A stretch of 64,000 nucleotides of DNA, from contig JAZSLT010000016.1 of assembly GCA_045535515.1 (NCBI GenBank), positions 11,598 through 75,597 on the forward strand, in the 5' to 3' direction. Made by a program: the position numbers and the translations under genes. Shown one piece after another: positions 15,533 through 23,594 of the stretch (its first letter is position 1; each line of letters opens with the position of its first letter). The DNA is from Clostridia bacterium (GTDB lineage: Bacteria > Bacillota > Clostridia > UMGS1883 > UMGS1540). The notes under the pieces were generated by a model. That model did no database searches. It saw only the letters and a list, made by a program, of their open reading frames with translations, and was not told the DNA's origin.

Positions 15533-16702
15533 ATGAGCAGAGTGCAAATTCCCTTGGAGGAATACAAGCAGAGAGTTAAAAACGCAGCGGCAAAGGCTGC
15601 GGAATGGGGCCTGGATGTGCTGGTCGTAAACGGCAACGAGGCCGATTACGCAAACACCCGTTATTTCAGCAATTTCTGGCCTGTATTTGAAAGATGTGGC
15701 GTAGCCATTTCCGCTACCGGCAATGTAGCGCTGATGGTTGGCCCGGAAAGCGAAATTTTCGCTTCGGATTTCGGCGTGATTGATGATATTTTCGTACTGC
15801 TCGAGTATCGTGAATCGGCAAACCCCGCTTATCCGGAGCTCAAACCCCAGACCTATAATGATGTATTTAAAAAGCTGGGCGTTACCGGCGAAAACATCCG
15901 CATCGGTGTTGCCTCCTGGCTGGACACCAATGTAGTTATGATGGAGGGCCTCAAGGCCGCTTACCCGAAGGCAGAAATCGTTCGCGCGGATGACATTATG
16001 GTACAGCTTCGCTCGGTAAAGAGTGACAATGAAATTGCCTGCCTTAGAGAAGCGGCACGCATCACCCAGCTGGCTACAGATGCCGTTATTAAGGCTATCC
16101 GCCCGGGTATGACCGAGCTGCAGCTCGTAGGTGTTGCCCAGAAGACCATTTATGAAAACGGTGCCGAATACGAAGGCCTGCCGATGTACTGCTTCAGCCA
16201 GAAGAGCACAAAGCATGCTATTTCCCGTTCTTCCTATAAGGAAATCCAGATGGGCGATATTGTACAGCTGAACCTTTCCGCTAAAATCTGCGGTTATTCC
16301 CCCAGTATCGGCATGCCGATTAGCATGGGCAAGCTGACGGGTGAGAAGAAAGAGCTGGTTGAGTTTGGTCTCGAGGCGCATATGTGGACAGAAAAGCAGC
16401 TGCGCGCCGGCGTTCTTTCCGGCGATATTGCCAAGAACTTCATCAAGTTCTTTGAAGAACACGGCAAGCGCCAGAACTATTTTTACGGTCCTTGCCACGG
16501 CCTCGGTCTTATCGAGGTAGAGGCGCCGTGGATGGAAACTATTTCTGATTATGTTCTGAAGAAGAATATGACCTTCCAGATTGATACCTTTGCCATGGGA
16601 AGCGATTTCGGTCTGCGTTGGGAGAAGCCGATTGCCATTACGGAAACCGGTGTGGACCTTCTGAGCGACCAGATTGGTACGATTTACGAGCTGGAATTCT
16701 AA
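15533..16702 (+). CDS. M24 family metallopeptidase (Xaa-Pro aminopeptidase/creatinase-like)
   Basis: 389 aa with N-terminal creatinase-like domain and C-terminal pita-bread fold. Confidence 0.7.
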   Translation: MSRVQIPLEEYKQRVKNAAAKAAEWGLDVLVVNGNEADYANTRYFSNFWPVFERCGVAISATGNVALMVGPESEIFASDFGVIDDIFVLLEYRESANPAYPELKPQTYNDVFKKLGVTGENIRIGVASWLDTNVVMMEGLKAAYPKAEIVRADDIMVQLRSVKSDNEIACLREAARITQLATDAVIKAIRPGMTELQLVGVAQKTIYENGAEYEGLPMYCFSQKSTKHAISRSSYKEIQMGDIVQLNLSAKICGYSPSIGMPISMGKLTGEKKELVEFGLEAHMWTEKQLRAGVLSGDIAKNFIKFFEEHGKRQNYFYGPCHGLGLIEVEAPWMETISDYVLKKNMTFQIDTFAMGSDFGLRWEKPIAITETGVDLLSDQIGTIYELEF

Positions 16703-17473: not shown

Positions 17474-18631
17474 ATGGTTATTGGTATCCCGAAGGAGATT
17501 ATGCACGGCGAGGGCCGTGTATCCGCAATTCCCGAAACGGTTTCTCTGCTCCGCGCGGAAGGCTTTGATGTTCTTGTAGAGAACAAAGCAGGCGAAGGCG
17601 CACTTTTTTCTGATGCAGAATATGCAGCAGCCGGCGCTACCATGATTGCGGACGCGGAAGAGCTTTACGCAAAGAGCGACATTATCTTAAAGGTTAAAGA
17701 ACCGCAGTTCAACGAAGCGAAGGGCAAGCACGAGGTAGATATGATGCATGAGGGGCAGTACCTCATCACCTTTATTCATCCGGCCTCGCCCGTTAACCAC
17801 GAAATGGTGAAGAACATGGCGGCAAAGGGCGTAATCAGCCTTACTCTTGACGGTGTTCCGCGTATTTCCAGAGCGCAGAAGATGGACGCGCTCTCTTCCA
17901 TGAGCACCTGTGCAGGCTATAAGGGTATCCTTATGGCGGCCAATGATTTGAAGAAGTTTATTCCCCCGATTTTCTGTGCCGTCGGTCAGGTTAAGCCCTG
18001 TAATGTAATGGTTATCGGTACAGGCGTTGCAGGCCTCCGCGCACTCGCTACCGCAAAGGGTCTTGGTGCGATTACATACGCGGCCGACATTCGTCCGGCA
18101 GCAGCCGAGCAGGCCATGAGCCTTGGGGCCAAAATCGTGGACACCGGCGTTCCGGCTGAAATTGCAGTTGGTGAGGGCGGCTATGCCAATGCCCTTCCCG
18201 AGGAATGGCTCGTAAAGGAAAGAGCCGCGCTGGCAGATGCGATTAAGGAGATGGACATTATCTTCTGTTCTGCCCTCGTTCCCAGCAAGCTCGCCCCTGT
18301 TATTCTGACGGAAGAGCTTGTCAAGACCATGAAGCCCGGCTCCGTTATCGTAGACATTTCGATTGACCAGGGCGGTAACTGTGCGATTACAGACCCCGGC
18401 GAAACGGCTGTAAAGCATCAGGTTACGATTGAAGGCATCAAGAATATTCCCGGTATGCTGCCCACAAGCTCTACCTGGATGTTCTCGCATAATATCTACA
18501 ACCTCGTAAAGTATCTGGCTAAAGACGGCAAGATGAGCCTGGATATGAACGATGATATCGTAAAGGGAATCCTGACCACCATCGGTGGCGAGATTGTTCA
18601 TAAGGGCGCGCTGGAAGCCATGAACAAATAA
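17474..18631 (+). CDS. pntA: NAD(P) transhydrogenase subunit alpha part 1 (dI domain)
   Basis: 385 aa; alanine dehydrogenase/PNT fold, MVIGIPKEI N-term and GxGxxG (VIGTGVAG). Confidence 0.9.
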   Translation: MVIGIPKEIMHGEGRVSAIPETVSLLRAEGFDVLVENKAGEGALFSDAEYAAAGATMIADAEELYAKSDIILKVKEPQFNEAKGKHEVDMMHEGQYLITFIHPASPVNHEMVKNMAAKGVISLTLDGVPRISRAQKMDALSSMSTCAGYKGILMAANDLKKFIPPIFCAVGQVKPCNVMVIGTGVAGLRALATAKGLGAITYAADIRPAAAEQAMSLGAKIVDTGVPAEIAVGEGGYANALPEEWLVKERAALADAIKEMDIIFCSALVPSKLAPVILTEELVKTMKPGSVIVDISIDQGGNCAITDPGETAVKHQVTIEGIKNIPGMLPTSSTWMFSHNIYNLVKYLAKDGKMSLDMNDDIVKGILTTIGGEIVHKGALEAMNK

Positions 18632-18703
18632 TTTTTAAAAAGCAATCCCATCAACCCGCACTCTTTCTGGGTGCGGATTGATGTGTATATGGGAGGAAAT
18701 ATT

Positions 18704-18997
18704 ATGGGAATTATTTTAATACTCATATTCGTGGTGGCCGCCATTGTCGGTTATTTTATCATCAATAAGGTGCCCACCCTTTTGCACACACCCCTCATGT
18801 CCGGCATGAACGCGCTTTCCGGCATAACGGTCTTAGGAGCGCTCACCACCATCGCCGTGGTGGTCCGGGAAAAAGGCTCCGTTTTAAGTGTAATTATCGG
18901 CATTTTGGCCATTATCTTTGCCATGGTCAATGTAGTGGGCGGATTTGCCGTAACCGGCAGAATGCTTAGAATGTTTAAGACAAAGGAGGACAAATAA
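18704..18997 (+). CDS. pntA: NAD(P) transhydrogenase subunit alpha part 2 (membrane)
   Basis: About 97 aa with 3 TM helices; ATG at 18704 lies 7 nt after GGGAGG. Stop overlaps the pntB start. Confidence 0.8.
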   Translation: MGIILILIFVVAAIVGYFIINKVPTLLHTPLMSGMNALSGITVLGALTTIAVVVREKGSVLSVIIGILAIIFAMVNVVGGFAVTGRMLRMFKTKEDK

Positions 18998-20893
18998 ATG
19001 ATAACAAGCACAGCGTATTACATCATAAGCGCCGTCCTCGTTTTAGGTGTTCTTCTGGGCATCAGCCGGATGAGCAAGGTAAAAAGCGCCAACAGCGGTA
19101 ACACCCTTTCGGCCGTTTGTACCCTCGTTGCCATTTTGGTTATCATGTATAACTGCGAAATCCTGACGGCGTGGCAGGCCTGGCTTGGGCTTGCAATCGG
19201 TGCGGTTCTCGGCATTATCGGCGCGGTCAAGGTTAAAATGATAGAGATGCCGCAGGCGGTGGCCCTTTTAAATGGTCTGGGCGGTCTTGCCAGCGCACTC
19301 GTGGCGATTTTAACCGTCCAGCAAACAGAAAACCGCTTTGAAATTTATGTAGGTGCGGTCGCTCTCGTTGTCGGCTTTGTTACCTTTACGGGAAGCGTTG
19401 TGGCAGCCGGAAAGCTGCATAAGCTTCTGCCGCAAAAGCCGGTTGTATGGAAGGCACATTCCCTGATTGTAGCCGTTACCATTGTGGCAACCGCTTTGGC
19501 CGTTATTTTCTGCCCCGAATGTATGTGGCTGATTTCCATTTTGTCCGCCTTCTTCGGCGTAGCCTTTGCCATTCGCGTCGGTGGTGCGGATATGCCCATC
19601 ACCATTTCTCTCTTAAATTCCCTAAGCGGTGTTGCCGGCGGTATTGCCGGTATTGCGGTGGGTGATGTTTTGCTTGTGGCGATTGGCGGCATAGTAGGCG
19701 CTTCGGGCCTTTTGCTTACGCAAATTATGTGCCGGGCCATGAACAGAAGCCTTATCAGTATTCTCGTTGGCGGCAAGGCCAAAAAGGCGGCGGCAAAAAT
19801 AGAGAAGGCCGCGGCGCCGGATAAAAAGGAAGAGCCGAAAAAGGAAGAAAAACTAAACGCGGGCGATATTTTAAATGCCGCGAAAAAGGTTATTATCGTA
19901 CCCGGTTATGGCATGGCACTCGGGCAGGCGCAGAGCATTGTTAAGACCTTTGCGGATAAGCTCGAGGCAAACGGCGCCGAGGTAAAATATGCCATCCATC
20001 CTGTCGCCGGCAGAATGCCCGGCCACATGAATGTACTTCTTTGTGAAGTGGATGTGCCGTACGATAAGCTTTACGAAATGGAAACGATTGACGGCGAGTT
20101 TAAGGAATGTGATGTAGCCGTTATCATCGGCGCAAACGATGTAGTAAACCCTGCGGCCAACACTGCAGAGGGCACACCGATTTATGGTATGCCGGTACTC
20201 TCTGCCGCCGATGCGAGACATGTCATTGTATGTAATTTTGACGCAAGTCCCGGCTACGCCGGCGTGCCGAACCCCTTGTATGAGGCGGAAAATACGATTA
20301 TGATGCTCGGTGATGCGAAGGAAACGGTCTCCGGTCTTATCGCAACCATCGGCAAAAGTGCGCCGAATGGCGAGGCGGCACCTGCAAAGAGCGTAAACGC
20401 AGGCGACATCCTGAAAAATGCCAAAAAGGTTATTATCGTACCCGGTTATGGTATGGCACTCGGGCAGGCGCAGAGCATTGTCAAGACCTTTGCGGATAAG
20501 CTGGAGGCAAATGGCGCCGAGGTAAAATATGCCATCCATCCTGTCGCCGGCAGAATGCCCGGCCACATGAATGTACTTCTTTGTGAGGTGGATGTGCCGT
20601 ACGATAAGCTTTACGAAATGGAAGCGATTGACGATGAGTTTAAGGAATGTGATGTAGCCGTTATCATCGGCGCAAACGATGTAGTAAACCCTGCGGCCAA
20701 CACCGCAGAGGGCACACCGATTTATGGTATGCCGGTGCTCTCTGCCGCCGATGCGAGACATGTCATTGTATGTAATTTTGACGCAAGTCCCGGCTACGCC
20801 GGCGTGCCGAACCCCTTGTATGAGGCGGAAAATACAATTATGATGCTCGGTGATGCGAAGGAAACGATAGCAGAGCTAATGTCCGCATTTTAG
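18998..20893 (+). CDS. pntB: NAD(P) transhydrogenase subunit beta with tandemly duplicated dIII (NADP-binding) domain
   Basis: 631 aa versus about 460 expected. TM domain followed by two near-identical copies of the roughly 180 aa dIII domain (VIIVPGYGMALGQAQ...GANDVVNPAA...). Confidence 0.9.
   Translation: MITSTAYYIISAVLVLGVLLGISRMSKVKSANSGNTLSAVCTLVAILVIMYNCEILTAWQAWLGLAIGAVLGIIGAVKVKMIEMPQAVALLNGLGGLASALVAILTVQQTENRFEIYVGAVALVVGFVTFTGSVVAAGKLHKLLPQKPVVWKAHSLIVAVTIVATALAVIFCPECMWLISILSAFFGVAFAIRVGGADMPITISLLNSLSGVAGGIAGIAVGDVLLVAIGGIVGASGLLLTQIMCRAMNRSLISILVGGKAKKAAAKIEKAAAPDKKEEPKKEEKLNAGDILNAAKKVIIVPGYGMALGQAQSIVKTFADKLEANGAEVKYAIHPVAGRMPGHMNVLLCEVDVPYDKLYEMETIDGEFKECDVAVIIGANDVVNPAANTAEGTPIYGMPVLSAADARHVIVCNFDASPGYAGVPNPLYEAENTIMMLGDAKETVSGLIATIGKSAPNGEAAPAKSVNAGDILKNAKKVIIVPGYGMALGQAQSIVKTFADKLEANGAEVKYAIHPVAGRMPGHMNVLLCEVDVPYDKLYEMEAIDDEFKECDVAVIIGANDVVNPAANTAEGTPIYGMPVLSAADARHVIVCNFDASPGYAGVPNPLYEAENTIMMLGDAKETIAELMSAF
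19884..20866 (+). repeat. 540-bp-period in-frame tandem duplication inside pntB (units 19884-20326 and 20424-20866, about 98% identical)
   Basis: Direct nucleotide comparison: about 9 substitutions over 443 bp, most of them synonymous; only 2 amino-acid differences (T to A, G to D). Confidence 0.85.
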
Positions 20894-21227: not shown

Positions 21228-23594
21228 ATGAAAAAAAGAGTTTTAGGCTTGTTTTTAGGCATCGTTATAATCATGTCGATTTCAACCATTTTTCCGGTTT
21301 GCGCGTTGGAAGAAGCAAGCGGAACTTGTGGTGATAATGTTACATGGACTCTAAATGACGCCGGAAGACTTGTTATACGAGGGGAAGGTGATATGACCAG
21401 CGCGCCATGGCTAACGGAATACAAGAGTGATATTACGGAAATCAAAATAAGAGATGGCGTGACATCCATTTCTCAGAATGCGTTTAATGGATGTATCAAT
21501 CTGGTGGATGTTGATATTGCTGATACTGTTACAACAATTGGAGGAAATGCATTTTATAAATGTGAAAGCCTGACATCTGTGTATTTACCCGAAAGCGTTT
21601 CGACTGTAGGAGGATGTGCGTTTGGATATTGCACAAACTTAGAGGAAATAAACTTTCCGGATGGTGTAACTGTTATTAGGGACAGCATGTTTTTCCGATG
21701 TGTTAATCTAAAAGAAGTGACGCTTCCGGATACAATTATAGACATCGAACGACTTGCCTTTTATGCCTGTGAGAGTCTGGAGGAACTTCAATTACCAGAA
21801 GGGCTGGAAACAATCGGGAGGGAGGCTTTTGCTTTTACCACACTTGGCGATTTGGTTATTCCTGAAAGTGTTAAAAGCATTACCTACCCAGCCTTTGATT
21901 ATAATAGTTATATCTGCCTGAATGTATATGCCGGAAGTTACGCCTTAGAATATGCGCAACAATATAACAAACCGTATGTGATTATAGAGAGGGAAAAAAC
22001 GCCTGCTGAAAAACTTTGCGACATAATCAATGCACAGACCGCAAATTCTTGCGAAGTTAATGCCAAATCACAAACAGTAACCCTTTTATCCGATGTGCAA
22101 CTGTCAGAAACGATTGCAATACCAACCGGCGGGAGCATCATATTGCAAATTGGCGACTTCAGCATTTTAGGGGCAAACGACCTCGATGCTATCCATGTCC
22201 CGACGGATGCCCTCATAAATATTTATGGTTCGGGAATAATTAAGGGCGGAAATGTTACGGAAAGTGGTTATTATGGCGGTAACGGAATTTCCAGTTCGGG
22301 GGAGCTACTTATAAGCGGTCCAACCCTTATTGGCGGCGATGCCCTTGCGGAATATGGATATGCAGGAGCCGGCGTTGAAACATGTGGCGCGGCGCCAACT
22401 TATTTTACAGAAGGTATAATTCAAGCAGGCGAAGGTTGTTATCAAAAAAGGGTGATGTTTGAAAGACTGAATCTTACGGTTGTTAAAGAAAGTGATGATG
22501 GCATAAATTACACGGTTGCTGCAAATTCGTTTTCTAACAATAAAAAATACTTAAAAGCAATTAAAATTTCAAACAATTTATCAGCAGCATCCAAACTTTC
22601 TGCTTTATTAAATGAAATACAAGCGGACACTTGTAGCATTGTCGGGGATGTAATAACATTAAACAAGGATTTTTCTTGCCCTTACGAAATCTATATACCA
22701 ATAGGCGATGCAATCATACTTGATTTTAATGGACATACTGTTACAACATATGATTTCTTTATTCCGTTCATAATACCTGCGCAGGCAGAGATTACTCTTA
22801 AAGGAACAGGTGTGCTTACCAATAAAGAACAAGAGTCCGGGGCGACATCCGGGATGGGCGGAAATGCCGCAGTACTTCCTAACGAAGGACAACTTACCAT
22901 CGATGGAATTACTGTCCGGGGGGCTGGACTATGCGGAATCAATAATTCCGGAGAATTGACAGTAAGTAGCGGAAAAATAATCGGAAGCGATAGTGCGAGC
23001 GGGAGAGAGGCTATATTTAATAGCGGAACGATATGGATATCCGGCGGGGAGATTATAGGTGGTAATGCTACCCGCGACGGCGGAGATGGCGGAGACGGGA
23101 TAGTCGGGCGTGCGTCAGTATCGCCGGACGGCATATATCCTATTAAACTGCATGGTGGTATATTGTGCGGCGGTAAAGGCTTGGGCGATGGTGAAAACGG
23201 AAGCGCAATCAGCACAAGATTTAATGTGGGTGAGGATTGCATCGCATACGAAAGTGATGATGGCGTAAATTATTCTGTATTAGAGGGTACAAGTTGTAGT
23301 GCGCGTTATCTCCAAATTGCAAACAAAAGCGGCAATGCTATATTTACAAGTAATATAGCATATGATGGCACAAATTGGTCATGTAACCTGCATTTGCATA
23401 GTGACGATGCCATAAGCGGTATTGTCTATGCGGCAGTTTATGAAGATAAACAGTTAAAAAAATTAACCCCATTTTCTGCGACAACACAAATTCCCGTCAG
23501 CCTTGCATGCGAAGAAGAACAAACGATTAGAATCTTCTGGTGGGATTCAAATTTAGAACCCAAAAGTCGAACGGTAGAGATAGAAGTGCAATAA
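21228..23594 (+). CDS. secreted cell-surface protein with BspA-type leucine-rich repeats and Gly-rich beta-helix-like repeats
   Basis: Signal peptide. Repeated units such as IPESVKSIGxxAF and VTSISQNAFNGC are typical of the LRR_5/BspA class. Downstream GG(N/D)G-rich repeats. Gene is AT-richer than its flanks. Confidence 0.65.
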   Translation: MKKRVLGLFLGIVIIMSISTIFPVCALEEASGTCGDNVTWTLNDAGRLVIRGEGDMTSAPWLTEYKSDITEIKIRDGVTSISQNAFNGCINLVDVDIADTVTTIGGNAFYKCESLTSVYLPESVSTVGGCAFGYCTNLEEINFPDGVTVIRDSMFFRCVNLKEVTLPDTIIDIERLAFYACESLEELQLPEGLETIGREAFAFTTLGDLVIPESVKSITYPAFDYNSYICLNVYAGSYALEYAQQYNKPYVIIEREKTPAEKLCDIINAQTANSCEVNAKSQTVTLLSDVQLSETIAIPTGGSIILQIGDFSILGANDLDAIHVPTDALINIYGSGIIKGGNVTESGYYGGNGISSSGELLISGPTLIGGDALAEYGYAGAGVETCGAAPTYFTEGIIQAGEGCYQKRVMFERLNLTVVKESDDGINYTVAANSFSNNKKYLKAIKISNNLSAASKLSALLNEIQADTCSIVGDVITLNKDFSCPYEIYIPIGDAIILDFNGHTVTTYDFFIPFIIPAQAEITLKGTGVLTNKEQESGATSGMGGNAAVLPNEGQLTIDGITVRGAGLCGINNSGELTVSSGKIIGSDSASGREAIFNSGTIWISGGEIIGGNATRDGGDGGDGIVGRASVSPDGIYPIKLHGGILCGGKGLGDGENGSAISTRFNVGEDCIAYESDDGVNYSVLEGTSCSARYLQIANKSGNAIFTSNIAYDGTNWSCNLHLHSDDAISGIVYAAVYEDKQLKKLTPFSATTQIPVSLACEEEQTIRIFWWDSNLEPKSRTVEIEVQ

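Follow-up and report, generated by a model that had tools for sequence, protein, structure and literature searches.

Organization of pntB with its duplicated dIII domain and of the operon

We analyzed a stretch of 64,000 nucleotides (nt) from a Clostridia bacterium (GenBank assembly GCA_045535515.1, contig JAZSLT010000016.1, positions 11,598–75,597), hereafter the window, in which a membrane transhydrogenase operon contains an unusual pntB gene (18998–20893, plus strand). Its product, a beta subunit of 631 amino acids (aa), consists of domain II (dII), a linker, domain III (dIII), a second linker, and a second dIII. The whole dIII domain is duplicated in frame and in tandem, and the duplication is real. 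An earlier note, made from the sequence alone, had described an open reading frame (ORF) of this length ending in two consecutive dIII domains, as was found: phmmer with the window dIII places the two domains at aa 286–450 and 466–630, and the Pfam PNTB match (9.9e-231) is split over two stretches.

The gene opens with the dII membrane domain (18998–19774, plus strand, aa 1–259), which carries the GGADMP and NRS motifs, followed by a dII–dIII linker rich in Lys, Ala, Glu, and Pro (19775–19849, plus strand, aa 260–284; GGKAKKAAAKIEKAAAPDKKEEPKKEEK). The first dIII copy (19853–20347, plus strand, aa 286–450) matches dIII domains of the PDB at 3e-54. Between the copies lies an inter-dIII linker (20348–20392, plus strand, aa 451–465; GKSAPNGEAAPAKSV), which the earlier note had called Ala/Pro/Lys-rich and which proved to be rich in Ala, Pro, Lys, and Ser. 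The second, terminal copy (20393–20887, plus strand, aa 466–630) ends in ...ELMSAF*, as single-copy orthologues do, its C-terminus being comparable to those of L039 and L013 (L-numbers denote loci of relatives and P-numbers PntB proteins).

A repeat search detected the direct repeat in pntB with a start-to-start spacing of 540 nt. This period exceeds the 500-nt maximum of Tandem Repeats Finder, and the repeat was measured by base-by-base comparison at an offset of 540. Near-identity extends from 19884 to 20326; beyond it the C-terminal side is unrelated and the N-terminal side is much more diverged. The two cores (19884–20326 and 20424–20866) are identical at 432 of 443 nt (97.5%), and the 11 differences fall in 10 codons, 8 of them with synonymous and 2 with non-synonymous changes (T363A and G366D). 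Nei–Gojobori estimates for the core (Sd = 9, Nd = 2, dS = 0.097, dN = 0.006) give a dN/dS of 0.06, and a binomial test of the core substitutions rejects neutrality (p = 4.9e-5). These values bear out the identity of about 98%, the 540-bp period, and the purifying selection on both copies proposed from the first inspection, which had counted roughly nine substitutions, two of them changing an amino acid, and was essentially right.

Upstream of pntB, pntAA (17474–18631, plus strand, 385 aa) encodes the soluble NAD(H)-binding domain I (dI, alpha1), with Pfam matches to AlaDh_PNT_N (PF05222, 2.4e-43) and AlaDh_PNT_C (PF01262, 8.1e-57). Its translation keeps the NAD-type Asp ("AADIR") of dI and has no transmembrane part, which identifies the three-subunit enzyme type. 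The small membrane subunit alpha2, with four transmembrane helices, is encoded by pntAB (18671–18997, plus strand; Pfam PNTB_4TM, PF12769, 3e-28), the true start of which is probably an internal ATG and the end of which directly abuts the pntB start codon (18997/18998). The window PntB scores 545.6 bits against the NCBIfam PntB equivalog NF006974, below its cut-off of 689. The fold, the gene order, and almost all of the signature residues mark the system as a PntAB-type transhydrogenase, and pntAA-pntAB-pntB is a three-subunit membrane transhydrogenase operon of the Thermus thermophilus/Rhodospirillum rubrum type.

Promoter and terminator scans of the pnt operon gave no more than shuffle-expected levels of hits. 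On the minus strand, an internally repeated antisense ORF of 296 aa (19871–20761) spans both dIII copies; it was set aside as a gene, being most likely a by-product of the repeated plus-strand coding sequence. The flanking genes encode an M24-family protein (Xaa-Pro peptidase/creatinase-like; 15533–16702, plus strand) and a 788-aa leucine-rich-repeat surface protein with weak matches to HupY/LrrG-type adhesins (21228–23594, plus strand). Neither has an obvious functional tie to the pnt operon.

Predicted structure and linkers

An AlphaFold2 model of the window PntB, built from a 54-sequence alignment (mean predicted local distance difference test score, pLDDT, 77.5), shows a helical dII followed by two dIII domains of identical secondary-structure topology. 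Structure modelling of the double-dIII subunit, which the earlier note had proposed, thus returns two like domains and unstructured linkers. Foldseek matched the model to T. thermophilus and Escherichia coli PntB. The dII helices extend to residue 257 with pLDDT values of about 76–96, and dII aligns with that of T. thermophilus at a TM-score of 0.89 and a root-mean-square deviation of 2.1 Å; the invariant dII columns are G195–P200, N207, and R250. Against solved dIII domains, the Foldseek TM-score is 0.80–0.84 and the sequence identity 53–59%, and both copies have the GYG fingerprint, the HPVAGRMPGHMN segment, and the GAND and GYAG loops of the dIII fold. Every solved beta chain among the PDB and Foldseek matches carries one dIII.

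The whole dII–dIII linker and residues 454–465 of the inter-dIII linker have pLDDT values below 50 and no secondary structure. Across the family, 267 inter-copy linkers have a median length of 14 aa (range 5–28) and are rich in Ala, Glu, Ser, Pro, and Lys (A 26%, E 12%, S 10%, P 9%, K 8%, T 8%, and D 7%, with large hydrophobic residues at ∼3%), a profile that the window inter-dIII linker fits. Their median length is close to the 14–19 aa reported for the dII–dIII linker in all known enzymes (PMC5742237). The modelling suggests that the inter-copy linkers are flexible tethers, predicted to be disordered.

Distribution of PntB proteins with multiple dIII domains

From about 5.8 billion proteins searched, 8000 candidates were obtained, each below 1e-30, and dIII domains were counted in the best 120. 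In this ranking, which is biased towards multi-domain proteins, all 120 carry multiple dIII domains (5 with two, 87 with three, and 28 with four), and among the best candidates is one N-terminally truncated protein with five. Named carriers are Porphyromonas endodontalis, P. cangingivalis, P. uenonis, Dysgonomonas spp., and Alkalicella caledoniensis, with further carriers among metagenome-assembled genomes (MAGs) labelled Clostridiaceae, Saccharofermentanales, Eubacteriales, and Bacillota. Among 50%-identity representatives, dIII is matched below 1e-30 by 696 proteins; of the top 150 analyzed, ∼22 carry at least two dIII domains, and the highest count in a single representative is 4.

The closest relatives among GTDB species representatives are gut and rumen Clostridia MAGs (Acutalibacteraceae, Ructibacterium, and Congzhengia) with 1, 2, or 3 dIII domains, and related gut Clostridia show the identical dII–dIII–linker–dIII layout. 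Two dIII domains occur in Treponema putidum ATCC 700334 and four in a Bacteroidales MAG, and the more distant lineages Gemmatimonadota, Thermomicrobium, Acidobacteria, and Actinomycetes have 1. The duplication is therefore not lineage-specific, a question that the earlier note had raised: PntB proteins with 2 to at least 5 dIII domains are widespread in anaerobic Bacillota, Bacteroidota, and Spirochaetota, and the architecture is concentrated in a PntB clade specific to anaerobes. At every multi-dIII locus examined, soluble dI has a gene of its own; as a correlate of multiple dIII domains this feature is not discriminating, the single- and multi-dIII loci examined being all three-subunit.

Several carriers are represented by isolate assemblies. 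Alkalicella caledoniensis encodes a PntB with four dIII domains in a pntAA-pntAB-pntB operon on a closed chromosome of 3,695,371 bp (CP058559.1), and the first three of these domains are 96–99% identical at the nucleotide level. The 1003-aa PntB of P. cangingivalis is identical in three assemblies. In a 290-member cluster of P. endodontalis, all 14 full-length sequences listed have four dIII domains, one of these sequences occurring on 87 contigs.

Within the P. cangingivalis 90% cluster, P0291 (823 aa) has 3 dIII domains and P0074, P0287, and P0288 (1003 aa) have 4, possibly reflecting within-species copy-number variation or a collapsed metagenome contig of 6.3 kb. At a locus of the same species (L074), pntB is followed by genes for pyruvate formate-lyase and its activase.

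Assembly of near-identical dIII repeats

We weighed whether a single-copy dIII region, or two strain haplotypes, had been wrongly joined in tandem. The window apparently comes from a metagenome-type assembly, the exact protein occurs on one NCBI contig only, the exact-protein look-up has no encoding contig on record, and repeats of this kind do break related assemblies. Yet the window's copies differ at 11 core positions, mostly synonymously, their flanks are unlike, and the junction is a unique linker in frame. The ends of terminal and internal copies differ as they do in 10 or more related species, and a closed chromosome as well as many isolate assemblies made independently show the same layout. 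An artefact is therefore extremely improbable for the window and, for the architecture as such, effectively refuted, in agreement with the first reading of the locus as more than a misassembly.

The effect of such repeats on assemblies is visible among the relatives. Seven contigs end in the first dIII (L021, L022, L023, L026, L027, L029, and L030), six loci start inside a dIII (L019, L028, L031, L035, L040, and L067), and three start/end pairs come from one MAG each (L023/L028, L030/L035, and L022/L040). Such breaks are what a genuine near-identical repeat is expected to cause in short-read assemblies; in the window, the two copies share no identical run longer than 98 nt. The dIII copy numbers in MAGs are lower bounds and, in practical terms, may be under-called, and the single-copy relatives L013 and L039 may be collapsed assemblies. 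The pntAA match in L013 (169–1361) is broken into two overlapping segments that lie in different frames (169–564 and 546–1361), which suggests a frameshift or sequencing error in this MAG.

Comparison of the dIII copies

We compared the copies at 58 family-invariant columns, chosen for conservation of 95% or more among 14 single-dIII proteins of diverse phyla. Retention of these residues in multi-dIII proteins is nearly uniform along the protein (97.7% in first, 97.5% in middle, and 97.6% in last copies), and the window's two copies each retain 57 of the 58. A comparison of first with last copies revealed no positional specialization and no consistent residue swap, differences being confined to the N- and C-terminal boundary helices. 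Purifying selection acts on every copy, and the family-invariant residues are equally well kept.

Two proteins depart from this pattern. In P0136 (664 aa) and P0137 (659 aa), the second of two dIII domains has diverged strongly and lacks several residues that are invariant elsewhere (e.g. "GIHPYAGRILGHIPFLLSEAG" and "FNLAEDTGWAEV"). These second domains may be degenerate or regulatory heads, unlike the homogenized copies of the window's clade.

An old duplication with probable concerted evolution

In related genomes, dIII copies are 87–95% identical at the nucleotide level within a genome, whereas the best copy elsewhere is 75–86% identical. For 91% of 139 domains from 41 non-redundant multi-dIII proteins, the nearest neighbour lies within the same protein. 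Most within-genome pairs have a dS of 0.1–0.3, against about 2 (saturated) between the window and its nearest relative, L001.

The junctions are shared between species. Internal copies in the window's relatives end in "...IG" followed by a linker of roughly 10–20 aa, and terminal copies end in "...SF*" or "...AF*", with the exception of L001 ("...SI*"). The terminal copy of L005 resembles that of L004 more than it resembles its own partners, and these two terminal copies are orthologous. Divergence in the window is also mosaic: 11 of the 30 positions directly upstream of the core differ, against 11 of about 444 within it (p = 4e-9), and codons with synonymous differences number 5 of 7 in this flank and 8 of 146 in the core (p = 4e-5). 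All within-genome copy pairs have a dN/dS of 0.07–0.26, including pairs with a dS of 0.5–1.2.

Taken together, the clustering of copies by genome, the conserved junctions, and the mosaic divergence point to concerted evolution acting on an ancestral duplication. These comparisons indicate that recurrent gene conversion, or unequal exchange in register, keeps the copies alike, and that the duplication predates the species splits among the relatives. The near-identity in the window would accordingly reflect gene conversion and not recent duplication, with 19884–20326 (plus strand) in copy 1 and 20424–20866 (plus strand) in copy 2 as the putative homogenized tracts, each defined by the 97.5% identity and the diverged upstream flank.

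The contrary view, that a recent lineage-specific duplication arose by unequal crossing-over, is neutral or transient, has not yet decayed, and has independent origins elsewhere, would account for the high core identity and for the varying copy number of close relatives (1, 2, or 3), including the single-copy L039 and L013, which are 83–89% identical to two-copy proteins in the best tblastn segment. It does not fit the junction position and the internal and terminal end motifs common to species with saturated dS, the orthology of the L004 and L005 terminal copies, the constraint on every intra-genome pair even at high dS, the far greater divergence of the repeat's N-terminal flank than of its core, at synonymous sites too, or the presence of the architecture in three phyla. 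We regard a recent origin as very unlikely. Many recent independent duplications are likewise disfavoured by the shared junctions, the saturated between-species dS, and the flank/core mosaic.

An N-x-D motif in place of KRS

Both dIII copies of the window deviate from canonical dIII domains at one site. Where PDB dIII sequences have the KRS motif, copy 1 has N413-F414-D415 (20234–20242, plus strand) and copy 2 has N593-F594-D595 (20774–20782, plus strand); the aligned residues in the T. thermophilus and R. rubrum structures are IKRGQ and IKRSM. From the dIII crystal structures, we take the KRS motif to bind the 2'-phosphate. In E. coli beta, the motif (K424-R425-S426) is part of the NADPH site that is protected on binding (PMC9529548). 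With N-F-D replacing KRS in both copies, "NADP(H)-binding" is a predicted label for the dIII domains of this clade.

The replacement is a clade-wide feature. Domains of the 150 best representatives fall into two clearly separate groups, 87 of a KR type and 71 of an N-x-D type. All domains of the N-x-D type have N for K424 and D for S426, with S404 to T co-varying; the canonical type has K at 100% and S at 86% of the corresponding positions. N-x-D occupies the same position in L001–L045, whether the protein has one dIII or several. The N-x-D type is found at loci from Clostridia, Treponema, Bacteroidales, Prevotellaceae, Prolixibacteraceae, Bacilli MAGs, Desulfosporosinus, and Desulfobacteraceae, and the KRS type at loci from Gemmatimonadota, Thermomicrobium, Acidobacteria, Actinomycetes, Planctomycetia, and Saprospiraceae. 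As judged from these alignments, N-x-D replaces KRS throughout a whole PntB clade of mostly anaerobic lineages. Multiple dIII domains are more common in the N-x-D type (8 of 30 full-length representatives) than in the KRS type (1 of 14), where P0136, of the diverged second copy, is an example; P0137 is of the type N-L-D. No description of the N-x-D variant was found in open-access papers and preprints, and subscription journals may differ. Looking for Entamoeba dIII data brought up no usable evidence of a characterized N-x-D-type enzyme, and PMC5026163 makes no residue-level statement about 2'-phosphate binding.

Proposed mechanism and alternative readings

Equivalent heads on flexible tethers are most economically read as a multi-headed swinging arm. 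We therefore favour, with moderate confidence, the interpretation that the operon encodes a three-subunit enzyme with two complete and equivalent dIII domains in series that act in this way. In the canonical enzyme, the single dIII of each protomer visits dII, where it couples to the proton, and after detachment and rotation dI, the alternation being seen by cryo-electron microscopy; the face-down position on dII is the only state for nucleotide exchange and the face-up position at dI the only one for hydride transfer (PMC13635403). An array of equivalent swinging heads would share one proton channel and one soluble dI dimer, so that one tethered head could sit on dII while another occupies dI. 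Several heads would raise the local dIII concentration at both sites, and slow docking and rotation steps could overlap. The dI dimer has no covalent tether in three-subunit enzymes (PMC13635403), and the avidity of several heads could hold it at the membrane complex.

Several points weigh against a multi-headed arm. The gain in throughput or avidity is inference only, and if dII-coupled nucleotide release is the slow step, heads queuing for one dII channel would give no faster turnover. For a first dIII the dI dimer has a dissociation constant below 60 nM, and its affinity for a second is about a thousand times lower; because a face-up pair would clash, the dimer sterically accommodates one face-up dIII only, which limits parallel hydride transfer (PMC5742237). 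Extra heads are dispensable, since the clade also includes relatives of like three-subunit layout with a single dIII (L013, L017, L020, and L039). The loss of KRS makes the identity or affinity of the bound nucleotide uncertain, as far as sequence can tell, and copy number in short-read MAGs, the window included, could be under-counted through collapse of a third identical copy.

A less probable reading, which we hold doubtful, is that the distal dIII domains are not catalytic and serve as tethered nucleotide reservoirs, regulators, or avidity anchors for dI, with the dII-proximal copy alone performing coupled catalysis. Only the first copy is joined directly to dII, and isolated canonical dIII holds NADP(H) very tightly. 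Untethered dI (PMC13635403), encoded as a soluble subunit at all multi-dIII loci examined, and the strongly diverged second dIII of P0136 and P0137 agree with such a role. Against it, distal copies in the window and its clade match the first copy in the retention of catalytic and loop residues, gene conversion keeps the copies interchangeable, and an anchor or reservoir would not require all invariant residues.

The N-x-D replacement opens a further alternative, in which extra heads and the loss of KRS together produce an energy-independent (uncoupled) side activity, low-affinity heads exchanging nucleotide in solution and passing hydride on dI while skipping dII. This would draw on the fixed K424 to N and S426 to D changes of the clade within an NADPH site protected on binding (PMC9529548), on the enrichment of multi-dIII proteins among N-x-D representatives (8/30 against 1/14), and on the largely anaerobic lineages of N-x-D loci (Clostridia, Treponema, Desulfosporosinus, and Desulfobacteraceae). 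We consider it quite unlikely, given the full conservation of dII with its proton-path motifs and of the alpha2 subunit, and because most N-x-D enzymes have a single dIII.

More tentatively than the multi-headed arm itself, it is possible that multi-headed PntB and N-x-D together define a mechanistically distinct class of anaerobe transhydrogenase, in which lower-affinity heads would time-share the channel and dI in a pipelined or partly uncoupled fashion. The nucleotide affinity, or even the specificity, of dIII might then be altered. If so, one dIII per protomer in anti-phase alternation would be one solution among several.

Comparison with known transhydrogenases and other tandem-domain enzymes

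The literature treats both a single dIII per protomer and the KRS motif as universal, and the window PntB has neither. For the former, the three-domain architecture has been described as "universally conserved" (PMC5742237), and present models of proton-coupled transhydrogenation give each protomer exactly one dIII, which alternates between dII and dI in anti-phase to the dIII of the partner protomer. The double-dIII beta subunit was thought to be undescribed when first noticed, and our literature search agrees: no description of tandem, multiple, or duplicated dIII domains was found in open-access papers and preprints, an earlier mention in a subscription journal being possible. Hundreds of multi-dIII proteins are already in the databases, annotated generically as "NAD(P)(+) transhydrogenase subunit beta".

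With 2 to at least 5 tethered heads that are interchangeable, these natural enzymes offer a direct test of the one-dIII model and bear on its rate-limiting step, on the proton coupling of heads that are not wired to dII, and on the retention of soluble dI. The loss of KRS in the same clade raises the question of how, and how tightly, NADP(H) is bound. The carriers are gut, rumen, and oral anaerobes (Clostridia, Porphyromonas, and Treponema), in which NADH/NADPH balancing is poorly characterized.

Compared with the PntAA/PntAB/PntB enzymes of T. thermophilus and R. rubrum, the window system has the same gene order and subunit split (soluble dI, alpha2 with four transmembrane helices, and a beta subunit of dII and dIII), and its dII and dIII folds match (TM-scores of 0.89 and 0.80–0.84, respectively). 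It differs in having two dIII domains in the beta subunit (up to at least 5 in relatives) where theirs has one, in the N-F-D motif in place of KRS/KRG, and in scoring below the NCBIfam PntB cut-off.

A partial precedent comes from the protozoan single-polypeptide enzyme (dIIb-dIII-linker-dI-dIIa; e.g. Paratrimastix and Entamoeba), in which the C-terminus of dIII is extended via a long Ala/Pro-rich linker (PMC13635403), indicating that this terminus tolerates a tethered domain. The appended domain there is dI; here one or more further dIII domains take its place.

By analogy, the arrangement also resembles enzymes outside the transhydrogenase family. The tandem lipoyl domains of E2 in 2-oxoacid dehydrogenases and the tandem acyl carrier proteins (ACPs) of polyunsaturated fatty acid synthases are small mobile domains that move between active sites and are joined by flexible Ala-, Pro-, and charge-rich linkers; such repeats are nearly identical within a protein, and their number varies between species. 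Multi-dIII PntB would share with them a repeated mobile domain, flexible linkers, and a variable copy number, here from 1 to at least 5. Unlike lipoyl domains and ACPs, with which it has no homology, dIII binds a dissociable dinucleotide and not a covalent prosthetic group, and its docking is tied to proton translocation.

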